Shown: piece by piece, positions 13,121 through 16,930 of the stretch
How the letters are laid out: every line of letters begins with the position of its first letter
How positions within the stretch are numbered: position 1 is the stretch's first letter
NCBI GenBank assembly: GCA_045638265.1
Contig: JAZUBA010000077.1
Coordinates: 4,655-68,654 of the forward strand
Direction: 5' to 3'
Origin: Alphaproteobacteria bacterium
Lineage (GTDB): Bacteria; Pseudomonadota; Alphaproteobacteria; CAAHEQ01; UBA3637
DNA length: 64,000 nt
The notes under the pieces: generated by a model
What the model saw: the letters and a program-made list of their open reading frames with translations, nothing else
Told to the model about the DNA's origin: nothing
The model's database searches: none
Program-made: the position numbers and the translations under genes

Positions 13121-13149
13121 TTGACAAACAAAAGATAATCCTATATAAT
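13121..13149 (+). promoter_or_regulatory. Perfect consensus sigma70 promoter (TTGACA-17-TATAAT)
   Basis: TTGACA at 13121-13126, a 17-nt spacer, TATAAT at 13144-13149; AGGAGG RBS at 13162; ATG at 13173. Confidence 0.55.
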
Positions 13150-13172
13150 ATTTTAACATTCAGGAGGATTAT

Positions 13173-13820
13173 ATGGAACAAATTGAACAAAAACGTGCTG
13201 AACAGAAAGCCGAAAAAATCAAAAAAATTGAACAAAAAGCTCAAAAAACAGAAAATTGGAATGCATGCAAACGAGCGCTTAAAAACGGCATTGTTACCGG
13301 CTTATGGGTAATTGCCGGTGTAGCCGGTTTAGGTTATGCCGGTCATCAGGCATATAAATGGGGTGAAAATAAGTTCATTCAATTAAAAGCTGATGAAATT
13401 TCAGATATTATTAAAACAGTTCCTCAAGAAAAAGCAAATGCAATTCGTAGAGCATATGACAGAGAATTATTGGAAGCGATTGAAAAAGTGGAACGGGGTG
13501 AAAAATGTAAAGGTGTTTATATTACACCCAACAATACAACATCTATTGCTCATTCTGAATTATTTTATAAATATAAAGCTTACAATCCGGATGTGTATGA
13601 AAATCGTTCTGCCGAAGATTGGGTATTATTAGAACATATGGCTAATCGTTATTATCAGGCACAAGGAATGAAGTTGTCTAATAAAAGAGGTGTGAAAAAT
13701 TTGTTTGCACAGAAATTGCGAAATGATTTAAAAGAAACAAAAGCAATTCGTTTGCAATTTTACAACGGTCACTTTACGCATGCTTTAAAAATGAAAGAAA
13801 TGTATAGAAATATACGTTAA
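13173..13820 (+). CDS. Hypothetical membrane-anchored protein, first gene of an ankyrin cluster
   Basis: 215 aa; one hydrophobic helix (GIVTGLWVIAGVAGLGYAG). Confidence 0.45.
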   Translation: MEQIEQKRAEQKAEKIKKIEQKAQKTENWNACKRALKNGIVTGLWVIAGVAGLGYAGHQAYKWGENKFIQLKADEISDIIKTVPQEKANAIRRAYDRELLEAIEKVERGEKCKGVYITPNNTTSIAHSELFYKYKAYNPDVYENRSAEDWVLLEHMANRYYQAQGMKLSNKRGVKNLFAQKLRNDLKETKAIRLQFYNGHFTHALKMKEMYRNIR

Positions 13821-13840
13821 TTAATATTTTAGGGGGATAC

Positions 13841-15472
13841 ATGAACGAGAATATTATTCAATATCAAGAATATCTTTTAAAACAAGTTGAAAAAAAAGAG
13901 ATAAAAAAAATCAACAGATTGGAATATTTAAAAATACTTGCTAAAACATGTCCTGAATATATTAAAATGATTCCTGCTGATAAAAAGGATATGAAAGACG
14001 AAGTTCAACAATATGTTCGGGAATATATGTTTGATTTTCAAAAAGATGAAAGTAAAACACCTCAACAGGAATATGAGATTTTAAAAGAAAACATTGATTC
14101 TTTTCGTCATACGAATAAACGGACATCAAAAATTGCACAAAGTACTTTGTCTTTAACGCCAACATCTATCGGTGAACCGTTCCCCGACGAAGATAAGATT
14201 GAATTTGGCAAGCATTCAAATTTTACTGCATTAGAGACATATATTCAAGATATCTTAAATACGCCAAACAATCATAAAGAAGTTGAAAGTATTGCTAAAT
14301 TAGTTTCGTATGATAATCATAAAACATCAATCGGATTTGGTTCAAAAATAAGAAAGATGACATGCGATGTTGAAGAGCTTCGCAGTGCTTTTTACACTGT
14401 ATTGCGGCACGGTATTGAATATCCGGAATATTATTTGATTATAGTAGATAATAATTGTAGTGGTTTTTCAAATGGGTTGATTAATTGTGTTTATAAAAAT
14501 GATACAGAAACATTTACTGAACTGTTAAAGCGTGGTGCAAATACATTTTATTATAATGAAGCGCTTTGGGGTCTATGTTGTGCAGAAAATAAAAAAGATT
14601 TTTTGAATTTAATGGTTGATTATGCATCTGATGATGTCAATTATTCTATGACACATCACTTTAAGGCTCCTCAATATTTTGATCGTGATGAATTGGGTTT
14701 GTATGCGTTTAAAAACATCTTTTATTCGTATGTAGATAAAACTGTTTTTGATTCGGCGATACAATACAACCATACAGATATTGCAGAAAGATTAATACAG
14801 AAAGGGTATAAAGTTAATCGGTATAATAATTGTCATGATAGTATGATTTATGCTTGTTGCAAATGCTATCCGAATATGATACAATCTTTGGCAGATTTCG
14901 GATATAATATGTCAGACAGATATTTTAAAGGAGATACACAACATCATATATTGACACTGTGCCATTTAAATGAAGAAGATTTTAATAAAAAGGGAGAATT
15001 TTTTGACAGTGTTCAGGTTCTGGTTAATCATGATATTGATGTTGATGCCAAAAATGAAAATGGTGATACACCGTTGCATGTTATTACAAAAGAACGTCAT
15101 TATGTGTTTGATTGGGGAAATGTAACGCAAATGTTGTGCCACAATGCAGAATTTATGACAAATTGCTATTTAGAAAACGGTGCAAATCCCAACATTAAAG
15201 ATAAAGACGGCAATACACCGTTGCACTTGGTTTTATCAAACTGTATAGATGCTCAAACACTGCCGATTGTAGAAAATTTATTAAAACATGGTGCCAAACC
15301 CGACATTTACAATCATAAACTGGTTACACCTTATGCGTTGGCTTTTAAAATGTTGAAGAATGCACCGGATACATATAAAAGAGATGCCCGACAAATTTTA
15401 AAATTATGTCAAGATGCCAAACCGTCATTCTTGGCAAAAATGACACGATATTTTTCCGGAGTGCATCGTTAA
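13841..15472 (+). CDS. Ankyrin-repeat protein (paralog A)
   Basis: Ankyrin motifs (NGDTPLHVITK, DGNTPLHLVLS). N- and C-termini are paralogous to the next gene. Confidence 0.75.
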   Translation: MNENIIQYQEYLLKQVEKKEIKKINRLEYLKILAKTCPEYIKMIPADKKDMKDEVQQYVREYMFDFQKDESKTPQQEYEILKENIDSFRHTNKRTSKIAQSTLSLTPTSIGEPFPDEDKIEFGKHSNFTALETYIQDILNTPNNHKEVESIAKLVSYDNHKTSIGFGSKIRKMTCDVEELRSAFYTVLRHGIEYPEYYLIIVDNNCSGFSNGLINCVYKNDTETFTELLKRGANTFYYNEALWGLCCAENKKDFLNLMVDYASDDVNYSMTHHFKAPQYFDRDELGLYAFKNIFYSYVDKTVFDSAIQYNHTDIAERLIQKGYKVNRYNNCHDSMIYACCKCYPNMIQSLADFGYNMSDRYFKGDTQHHILTLCHLNEEDFNKKGEFFDSVQVLVNHDIDVDAKNENGDTPLHVITKERHYVFDWGNVTQMLCHNAEFMTNCYLENGANPNIKDKDGNTPLHLVLSNCIDAQTLPIVENLLKHGAKPDIYNHKLVTPYALAFKMLKNAPDTYKRDARQILKLCQDAKPSFLAKMTRYFSGVHR

Positions 15473-15490
15473 GTATTATTTGAGTATCAA

Positions 15491-16930
15491 ATGAGTGAGA
15501 ATATTGAACAGTTTAAAGAATATTTTTTAAAACAACTTGAAAAAAGTGATGTTGAAAAATTAACACGATTTGAATTTTTAACATTATTAGCAAAAATCTG
15601 TACTCAATATGTCAAAAAAATATCATCAGGCGAACAGACTAAACAAGATGAAATTAAGCAGTATGTTCGTCAATATATGCTTGATTTTCAAAAAGATGAA
15701 GCCAAAACACCTTTACAAATATATGATGAATTAAGAAATGAAATTCTTTTGTTGCCTCAAAGCTGGAAAGAAATCTTAAAAATGTTTGATACACCCAACA
15801 ATCACAAGTTGGTTGAAAAATTTATCCGGACAACAAAAAATCATGAGGCATTGAAGGATGTGTTAAATCACGGTATCGAATGTCCTGAATATTATTTAAT
15901 TATAGATGATTATTATCCGTTTTTGTCTGCTCAGGCATTATATGATTGTGTTGAAAAAAATGATAAAACAACTTTTGTGGAATTATTAAAACGGGGCGTT
16001 CAACCATTCGGAGATGGTGAATCTTCTTTTTGGAGTTTATCTTGTCATCAGAATAAAACTGATTTTTTAAATTTAGTTGTTGATAACGCAAAAATTGATG
16101 TCAATTCACTGGTTCCGGATACTTTAGGTAGTGGACCGGAGTATTTTATTAGGGAAAATCCATATTATATTTGTGAGCTTTCCATGTTTGATTATGCTAT
16201 ACAATACAATCATACGGATATAGCCCAAAAGTTGATAAATAAGGGTTATGATGTGAATCATCAAAAAGGCTTCTATGGTGATGTAATGGTTTATGCTAGC
16301 AGATGGTGTAAAACTCAAATGATAAAAAATCTGGCAGATTTTAAGTTTGATATGACCCGTAAATATATCAATAATGAAACACCTTTACATTTATTGGTAT
16401 GGTATCATTTAAATGATGAAAATTTTGCCAAACAATCAGATTTTTCCGAATGTGTTAAACTTCTTGTTCAAAACGGTGTAGATATTAATGCAAAAGATGA
16501 TAATGGTTATACACCATTACACATTGTTACAAAGGAACGAGATGTAGATTGTGTTGGGAGGGGTGGAAAGACTCTTTCAAAACGCTTTTGTCATAATGCT
16601 GAATTTATGGTGAATTGCCTGTTGGAAAACGGGGCAGATCCAAATATCAGATATAATAAAGGAAATACATCGTTGCATTTCGCTATGTGTTATGGCATAA
16701 ACGGTAAGACACTTTCCATTGTTGAAAAACTGTTACAATATGGTGCAAAATCTGATATAAGCAATGGTGCATGGCTTACACCTTGTAAAATGGCATTTGA
16801 ATTATTACAAGAAGCTCCATTAGCATTGAAAAATGATGCCCGACAAATTTTAAAATTATGTCAAGAAGCCAAACCGTCATTCTTGGCAAAAATGACTCGT
16901 TATTTTGTTGGTATGCAACGTTCGGTTTAA
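15491..16930 (+). CDS. Ankyrin-repeat protein (paralog B)
   Basis: Collinear with paralog A from MSENIEQFKEYFLKQLEK to ARQILKLCQEAKPSFLAKMTRYF; the last ~70 nt are nearly identical in DNA. Confidence 0.75.
   Translation: MSENIEQFKEYFLKQLEKSDVEKLTRFEFLTLLAKICTQYVKKISSGEQTKQDEIKQYVRQYMLDFQKDEAKTPLQIYDELRNEILLLPQSWKEILKMFDTPNNHKLVEKFIRTTKNHEALKDVLNHGIECPEYYLIIDDYYPFLSAQALYDCVEKNDKTTFVELLKRGVQPFGDGESSFWSLSCHQNKTDFLNLVVDNAKIDVNSLVPDTLGSGPEYFIRENPYYICELSMFDYAIQYNHTDIAQKLINKGYDVNHQKGFYGDVMVYASRWCKTQMIKNLADFKFDMTRKYINNETPLHLLVWYHLNDENFAKQSDFSECVKLLVQNGVDINAKDDNGYTPLHIVTKERDVDCVGRGGKTLSKRFCHNAEFMVNCLLENGADPNIRYNKGNTSLHFAMCYGINGKTLSIVEKLLQYGAKSDISNGAWLTPCKMAFELLQEAPLALKNDARQILKLCQEAKPSFLAKMTRYFVGMQRSV

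Follow-up and report, generated by a model that had tools for sequence, protein, structure and literature searches.

Comparison of syntenic loci points to recent gene conversion between tandem ankyrin-repeat genes of an uncultured gut alphaproteobacterium

Our analysis of a 64-kb stretch of DNA from an uncultured gut alphaproteobacterium (GenBank assembly GCA_045638265.1, contig JAZUBA010000077.1; hereafter the window, with coordinates counted from its first nucleotide) revealed two tandem ankyrin-repeat genes, AnkA and AnkB, whose 3' ends are almost identical in DNA. Comparison with the same locus in four other genomes shows that these ends derive from a recent, short and non-reciprocal transfer of AnkA-type sequence (at least 62 nt) into AnkB in the lineage of the window. 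Together with an upstream gene for a single-pass membrane protein (gene1), the two ankyrin genes would form a three-gene operon under a consensus sigma-70 promoter; their products would bind proteins of a partner cell, and the C-terminal tail in which the conversion lies would act as a membrane-binding or targeting helix. We assign this combined reading a probability of roughly 0.6. The features on which it rests, all on the plus strand except the last, are as follows.

13110-13120, plus strand: A-rich upstream stretch ATAAAAAAATA, an UP-like element directly before the -35 hexamer
13121-13149, plus strand: promoter, with -35 TTGACA at 13121-13126, a 17-nt spacer and -10 TATAAT at 13144-13149
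13162-13167, plus strand: Shine-Dalgarno sequence AGGAGG, as read from the sequence, 5 nt before the gene1 ATG at 13173
13173-13820, plus strand: gene1, 215 amino acids, single-pass membrane protein of an orphan family
13841-15472, plus strand: AnkA, 543 amino acids; a helical module at the N-terminus is followed by a variable linker with about 64 residues more than in AnkB, then by ankyrin repeats and a tail that is basic and amphipathic
15383-15444, plus strand: AnkA copy of the 62-nt tract, donor type
15491-16930, plus strand: AnkB, 479 amino acids, with the architecture of AnkA but without the linker insert
16820-16927, plus strand: C-terminal tail of AnkB (residues 444-479), two predicted helices, the last amphipathic, basic (SFLAKMTRYFVGMQRSV)
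16835-16896, plus strand: AnkB copy of the 62-nt tract, the converted recipient, with a later change of GAT to GAA at 16865-16867
16927-18693, minus strand: Slt, a lytic transglycosylase (Pfam SLT), convergent with AnkB

AnkA and AnkB align as collinear paralogues from the first to the last residue, with 51% amino-acid and 65% nucleotide identity, and the additional linker residues of AnkA follow its N-terminal module. Against this background of 65%, the 3' ends share a run of 62 nt with a single mismatch, and 78 of 87 positions are identical when the comparison is continued to the AnkA stop codon. No run of this length with at most one mismatch arose when the matched and mismatched sites of the AnkA/AnkB codon alignment were permuted (0 of 10,000 permutations; longest permuted run 41 nt). 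The 59-nt core of the tract occurs in the window at the AnkA and AnkB sites only, 21 of the 24 identical tail residues use the same codon in both genes, and at the left junction of the tract the two genes have just a few bases in common. A sequence-only reading of this DNA had described the genes as collinear paralogs with nearly identical last 70 or so nucleotides, and had proposed recent gene conversion or a conserved C-terminal signal as the reason, to be rejected if identity at the C-terminal end proved no higher than in the rest of the gene. Proper alignment upheld the description, with the shared sequence at 15383-15444 and 16835-16896 and an identity at the C-terminal end that clearly exceeds that of the remaining gene, and of the two proposed reasons the grouping of alleles described below, which extends to silent sites, favours conversion.

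Relatives of these genes were scarce: a search of 5.8 billion proteins returned only four full-length clusters related to AnkA and AnkB, and no relatives of the ankyrin genes were found in species-representative genomes or in JGI metagenomes. All three proteins of the gene set, gene1 included, belong to very small orphan families. The comparison set consisted of the window and four complete AnkA/AnkB pairs from ruminant-gut metagenomes (L001, L003, L089 and L090; ENA or Logan assemblies). These loci share the gene order Dus, DUF3126, 270-amino-acid protein, GerE, 87-amino-acid protein, gene1, AnkA, AnkB, Slt, 218-amino-acid protein, Mpl and LdcA, and their AnkA orthologues are 92-94% identical in nucleotide sequence. 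Over a 63-nt (21-codon) alignment of the tract, identity between AnkA and AnkB was 0.97 in the window, 0.905 in L003, L089 and L090, and 0.78 in L001, compared with 0.63-0.64 over the rest of the gene in all five genomes.

The tract and its upstream flank in the window AnkB have conflicting affinities. The tract is 98.4% identical to the AnkA alleles of L003, L089 and L090 and 96.8% identical to the AnkA of the window itself, versus 63% in both cases for the 300 nt upstream; relative to the nearest AnkB orthologues the order is reversed, with 88.9% in the tract and 98% upstream, and the other AnkB orthologue reaches 79% in the tract. Five tract sites distinguish the window AnkB from the AnkB genes of both L001 and L003; the window AnkB has the AnkA base at every one of them, and three of the five are silent (GCC, CCG and, in TTC, the third base). 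At the protein level, the window allele is alone among six distinct AnkB tail sequences in having the A-type residues DARQ...PSFLAKMT, the others reading DAQQ...PSLLAKLT or DAQQV...SSLLSKLV. The GAA substitution in the window AnkB tract is private, being present in no other A or B allele. These observations are most simply explained by a recent, short and non-reciprocal copying of A-type sequence into AnkB and a single private change thereafter, from GAT to GAA, the direction of the conversion being read from the five genomes only.

The intermediate state of three genomes and the divergent allele of L001 suggest that the tail is a recurrent point of exchange between AnkA and AnkB. Exchange also appears to run from B to A, since the tail of one AnkA allele (P0131) begins with residues of the B type. 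All ten alleles have in common a 26-nt pattern, TTTTAAAATTATGTCAAGANGCCAAA, with one free position and including an exact 19-mer, which could serve as the seed of exchange. Before the transfer the tails of the two paralogues already resembled each other more closely than the remainder of the genes did, and this common stretch probably seeds repeated exchange. The locus offers a clean, small case of concerted evolution, in which five genomes catch the 62-nt tract at different stages and the direction and extent of conversion can be read directly.

Other origins of the near-identical ends were weighed against conversion. Purifying selection acting by itself on a secretion or targeting peptide common to both C-termini, in the absence of DNA exchange between the paralogues, would be consistent with the retention of the pattern DA-Q-LKLCQ-AK-S-L-K---R-F-G--R in every AnkA and AnkB allele seen, but it would leave unexplained the identity of synonymous positions, the departure of the window AnkB from its orthologues exactly where AnkA matches (at three of five sites silently), the grouping of the tract by donor paralogue instead of orthology, and the paralogue tails of L001, which are just 78% identical in DNA; we consider it very unlikely. 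Identity that extends to silent sites, and the small inverted repeat GCCAA...TTGGC inside the tract, might also be taken as the mark of a nucleic-acid element (RNA structure, terminator or protein-binding site) carried by the two 3' ends. This is extremely unlikely given the fold z-scores of -0.8 and -1.2 (40 and 23 of 200 shuffles fold equally well or better), the lack of any reported terminator-like site in the tract, and the L001 AnkB, which is without the tract and differs from AnkA at 14 of 63 positions. An assembly artefact deserves mention because the window derives from a 140-kb contig of a metagenome-assembled genome (MAG) and its ankyrin genes are mosaic between strains, and a chimeric join between paralogues or strains could place an A-type tract in AnkB. 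Such a join would need two switches within about 80 nt, with so few shared bases at the left junction that they fall far below the usual assembly k-mer; moreover, the tract has its private GAA substitution, absent from all other alleles, and partial A-like tails are found in the AnkB genes of three independent assemblies, all of which makes an artefact highly improbable.

The ankyrin genes as a whole depart from the evolutionary pattern of their surroundings. Flanking genes of the window share 95-99% nucleotide identity with L001 (97-99% except for the 270-amino-acid gene) and 85-96% with L003 (88-92% for Mpl, Slt and Dus), a pattern contradicted by AnkA and AnkB, which are 93% identical to those of L001 and 92-95% identical to those of L003. 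Along the ankyrin genes, segments of 100% identity alternate with segments of 60-85%, and their ratio of nonsynonymous to synonymous substitution rates (dN/dS) is 0.18-0.30, compared with 0.00-0.12 for Dus, DUF3126, GerE, Slt, Mpl, gene1 and the 87-amino-acid protein; the neighbouring orphans have values of 0.23 (270 amino acids) and 0.15 (218 amino acids). The discordant and alternating identities, along with the dN/dS values, therefore indicate that the ankyrin genes are mosaics of recombination between strains and that their proteins evolve faster. Such evolution fits proteins facing a changing partner.

The operon is suggested by the layout of the locus. The promoter at 13121-13149 matches the consensus at 12 of 12 positions, and the window contains a single perfect TTGACA-17-TATAAT, against an expectation of 0.01 from shuffled sequences. 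The promoter box AAAAAATATTGACAAA is kept 5' of gene1 homologues with 80%, 71% and 39% protein identity (L008, L007 and L005/L006, respectively), and likewise 5' of a more distant member of the gene1 family in L091, while the DNA around it differs among these loci. Consensus hexamers, a spacing of 17 nt and retention in related loci are thus all found at this promoter, as would characterize a sigma-70 site. The perfect promoter, the AGGAGG ribosome-binding site and the 215-amino-acid membrane protein followed by two ankyrin genes, all noted in the sequence-only reading, were confirmed, with one hydrophobic segment in gene1 and scores above the Pfam ankyrin thresholds for both downstream products. 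Spacers within the gene set are short (20 nt between gene1 and AnkA, 18 nt between AnkA and AnkB), and the same gene order recurs in five further loci from independent metagenomes. At the downstream end, the stop codons of AnkB and Slt overlap by 4 nt (TTAA, 16927-16930), each lying inside that of the other strand, and no terminator-like hairpin was found between the two genes.

On the upstream side, the operon promoter shares a 233-bp intergenic region with a divergently transcribed pair, the 87-amino-acid protein and a GerE/LuxR regulator (12411-12939, minus strand), which adjoins the 270-amino-acid orphan (11527-12339). Every syntenic locus, even the more distant L007, retains the pair. Because of the shared intergenic region and this conservation, the GerE/LuxR regulator may control the operon. 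The 270-amino-acid orphan ends in a conserved basic tail, KKRSAFSKLFRSAKKG.

Gene1 encodes a basic N-terminal helix, a glycine-rich hydrophobic segment at residues 39-57 (mean Kyte-Doolittle hydropathy 1.54) and a helical C-terminal domain, and its charge distribution suggests a cytoplasmic N-terminus. It had no match in Pfam, NCBIfam, PADLOC or PHROG, and a profile search of 1.84 billion representatives retrieved ten proteins, all unannotated, single-pass and of similar size. Its dN/dS of 0.06-0.09 indicates strong purifying selection. In the distant relatives L005, L006 and L091, where the AAAAAATATTGACAAA box is retained, the gene1 homologue adjoins a tRNA-like GC-rich sequence.

AnkA and AnkB scored above the Pfam cut-offs for Ank_2 (60.5 and 76.7 bits, respectively), Ank_4 (56.6 and 75.3) and Ank (49.8 and 77.2). 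In the AlphaFold model of AnkB, residues 3-86 form a confident four-helix module (predicted local distance difference test, pLDDT, 82-93) and paired helices from about residue 118 to 441 form an ankyrin solenoid. The only matches to the fold of AnkB in PDB were ankyrin and DARPin structures, the best being DARPins and ankyrin-1/B (E 1e-7, probability 1.0). Searches for remote homologues of the N-terminal module returned only fragments of the same genes and no relative in PDB, and the defence-system and phage libraries gave hits to the ankyrin repeats only.

The C-terminal tail differs in character from the proteins that carry it, with an isoelectric point of about 10.4 compared with about 6.1 for the whole protein and a net charge of +3 or +4 over the last 20 residues. 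For SFLAKMTRYF(S/V)G, a segment of the tail, the hydrophobic moment is 0.50-0.58 at a mean hydrophobicity of 0.05-0.22, and the tail is amphipathic and basic in every allele, with moderate conservation. These properties would be consistent with a membrane-binding or targeting helix. An amphipathic C-terminal helix of comparable kind is the membrane-targeting helix of MinD (PMC8155659), and the window itself encodes another C-terminal anchor, that of the PBP5-type carboxypeptidase DacA (62680-63813), which the AnkA/AnkB tail resembles in character and not by homology. Like the MinD and PBP5 helices, the tail lies at the extreme C-terminus, spans 11-17 residues, is predicted to be helical, and presents a hydrophobic face of Phe, Leu, Met and Tyr flanked by Lys and Arg; the likeness is nevertheless purely physico-chemical, and the tail is attached to an unrelated protein.

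Several observations weigh against the combined reading of operon, conversion, partner binding and membrane targeting. The operon and the activity of its promoter are inferred from sequence. Gene1 and the ankyrin proteins may be only loosely connected in function, because in L005, L006 and L091 the gene1 homologue precedes a paralogous single-pass membrane protein (196-201 amino acids) and not ankyrin genes. Given the strain mosaicism of the ankyrin genes, the conversion may have taken place in another strain, with later import of the AnkB allele. In searches of Pfam, NCBIfam, PADLOC, PHROG and PDB, only the ankyrin repeats matched known families, and the predicted helices of the AnkB tail (residues 444-458 and 462-478) have low confidence (pLDDT below 55). 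AnkA and AnkB have no signal peptide, and no secretion-system gene was present among the 56 open reading frames (ORFs) taken as genes in the 64-kb window, which leaves export unsupported.

The last points bear on a rival to the membrane-helix reading, though not to conversion, in which the tail would be a C-terminal type IV or type I export signal and the ankyrin proteins would be translocated effectors. Basic signals at the C-terminus are common among type IV substrates of alphaproteobacteria, and the basic last 20-30 residues (+3 or +4), the lack of an N-terminal signal peptide and the abundance of ankyrin genes in the surrounding region would all be consistent with export. The window nevertheless contains no VirB/VirD4, Dot/Icm, HlyB/HlyD or TolC gene, and the profile of the tail matches no other protein in it. 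In L001, the least converted genome, the A and B tails are just about 62% identical in protein sequence, compared with 51% gene-wide. Models of Legionella ankyrin effectors gave 20-41 bits, through the repeats only, against cut-offs of 500-1400; among these NCBIfam equivalogs the best were AnkY, with 41 bits against a cut-off of 600, and AnkX, with 30 against 1400. Type I substrates, ankyrin proteins of Orientia and Ehrlichia among them, are reported to favour L, D, A, V, T, S, I and F in their last 50 residues and to contain few K, H, P, M, W and C there. In AnkA and AnkB this enrichment is lacking: the favoured residues account for 0.52 and 0.48 of the C-terminal 50 positions versus 0.47 and 0.48 of the whole proteins, and the scarce ones for 0.26 versus 0.21-0.22. 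Taken together, an export signal appears doubtful, although far from negligible as a possibility, and a membrane-binding or targeting helix remains our preferred reading of the tail.

Comparison with known systems indicates that this locus is a lineage-restricted set of tandem ankyrin genes of a familiar type, locally homogenised by gene conversion. Like the host-associated ankyrin families of Wolbachia, Orientia, Rickettsia, Legionella, Coxiella and the symbionts of amoebae and sponges, AnkA and AnkB belong to a small, AT-rich and probably partner-dependent genome with many ankyrin genes, are tandem duplicates with fast protein evolution and strain-mosaic alleles, and lack an N-terminal signal peptide. 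Unlike the members of those families, to which they show no sequence relationship beyond the repeats, they combine an orphan N-terminal module with an orphan tail and have no PRANC, F-box or other known accessory domain; neither PRANC nor F-box was detected by Pfam searches at E up to 0.1. The Dot/Icm proteins AnkX, AnkY, AnkG and AnkH of Legionella (NCBIfam NF0430xx) are likewise bacterial ankyrin-repeat proteins that gave weak model hits, but AnkA and AnkB are not members of these families, their scores being far below the cut-offs. The exchange itself resembles ectopic gene conversion in bacterial surface-antigen and effector families in its short, non-reciprocal tract with divergent borders and homogenised silent sites, in the conflict between the phylogeny of the tract and that of its flanks, and in an extent of conversion that varies by strain, whereas AnkA and AnkB show one short 3' hotspot without dedicated machinery or a donor cassette. 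Alone, the finding leaves knowledge of ankyrin effectors and of gene conversion unchanged.

The window has a G+C content of 33.7%, and its LeuRS is closest to those of a MAG from water buffalo rectum (94%, partial match) and of SIG53 (90%), followed by other MAGs labelled Alphaproteobacteria bacterium from rabbit (82-88%) and from sheep, yak and roe deer gut (79-80%). Among named relatives, genomes labelled Candidatus Enterousia come nearest (67-73%). Enterousia and its order Rs-D84 have been described as bacteria with genomes below about 1 Mb, without most biosynthesis and with probable dependence on a partner (PMC12306168). The organism of the window probably belongs to Rs-D84, for which we found no literature on ankyrin genes.

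Six ankyrin genes (372, 543, 479, 230, 249 and 290 amino acids) occupy about 10% of the length of the window, which also encodes one Sel1-repeat protein. The last of the six (43135-44007, minus strand), directly downstream of LeuRS, was not found beside LeuRS in 78 of 80 related genomes, the closest included, with two weak hits; missing in nearly all relatives, it indicates that the ankyrin set turns over quickly. Fast-evolving and reshuffled between strains, the ankyrin proteins would bind proteins of the partner cell, probably of a eukaryote. In an ankyrin-rich and probably partner-dependent bacterium, 'effector-like operon' would be a reasonable label for a locus encoding such repeat proteins. 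This dense and fast-changing ankyrin set in uncultured gut alphaproteobacteria points to a eukaryotic partner and supplies candidate proteins.

A broader proposal is that the N-terminal module and the tail together define a class of proteins, specific to the lineage, that are exported or delivered to membranes. With these proteins, bacteria of the Rs-D84/Enterousia type would attach to or manipulate a eukaryotic partner, for example ciliates of the gut or the epithelium of the host, and the tail would be a new targeting signal kept uniform by conversion. Candidate members in the window would be AnkA, AnkB, the 372-amino-acid ankyrin protein (5965-7083) and two orphans of 400 and 397 amino acids (26886-29374). 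A profile of the N-terminal module, searched against the 209 ORFs of the window, gave E-values of about 1e-3 for the N-terminus of the 372-amino-acid protein and for the C-terminal parts of the two orphans, and profile-profile comparison of the module gave P = 0.002 with a probability of 14%. In similarity to the tail, the 400-amino-acid orphan (empirical p = 0.007) and the 372-amino-acid protein (0.03) were the best among real genes. C-termini of the window as a class were no more similar to the tail than internal segments (Mann-Whitney p = 0.66). A family defined by the module and the tail together is possible, and we consider the class as proposed decidedly unlikely. A tail motif seen by eye in the basic aromatic helices of the 270-, 400/397-, 249- and 372-amino-acid proteins was also considered, and the tail profile recovered none of them.

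The remaining features of the window are listed below.

1203-2624, 7145-9478, 24051-26810, 39712-43047 and 57803-59527: five large ORFs of 473, 777, 919, 1111 and 574 amino acids, respectively
5965-7083: the 372-amino-acid ankyrin protein, with a layout like that of AnkA and AnkB and a weak N-terminal module match (E = 0.001 among window ORFs)
26886-29374, minus strand: the tandem orphans of 400 and 397 amino acids, without a family in Pfam, NCBIfam, PADLOC or PHROG
34482-35174 and 35193-35942: a second tandem ankyrin pair (230 and 249 amino acids)
37296-38267: 323-amino-acid protein that scores slightly over the threshold (28.2 bits, cut-off 25, E = 2.4e-6) for the Pfam family Tad4, an anti-defence domain that inhibits type I Thoeris
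48900-57100: prophage-remnant-like cluster, also with HTH_36 and HTH_23 proteins and several small orphans
50090-50611: cell-wall hydrolase in the prophage-like cluster
50978-52039: protein with a gp53-like tail-fibre C-terminus and a BppL_N domain
54890-55570: HerA/DUF87-like ATPase fragment in the prophage-like cluster

None of the five large ORFs matched a Pfam family at E up to 1e-5, and they represent an unusual load of big orphans for a probably reduced genome. The Tad4 match, unexpected on a bacterial chromosome, may be phage-derived or due to chance. The basic C-terminal helix of the 372-amino-acid ankyrin protein contains AKPTLIQRAK, and the last 100 or so residues of the 400- and 397-amino-acid orphans weakly resemble the N-terminal module of AnkA and AnkB and finish in the basic aromatic ends ISFISRLRNLFIRD and ISGFLWFKHLFSRN. 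The second tandem ankyrin pair is preceded by a terminator-like hairpin (about 34401-34436) and by a putative promoter, ATAAATATTGACAAA-17-TATCTT, whose -35 hexamer lies at 34443 and which is of the same style as the promoter of the AnkA/AnkB operon.

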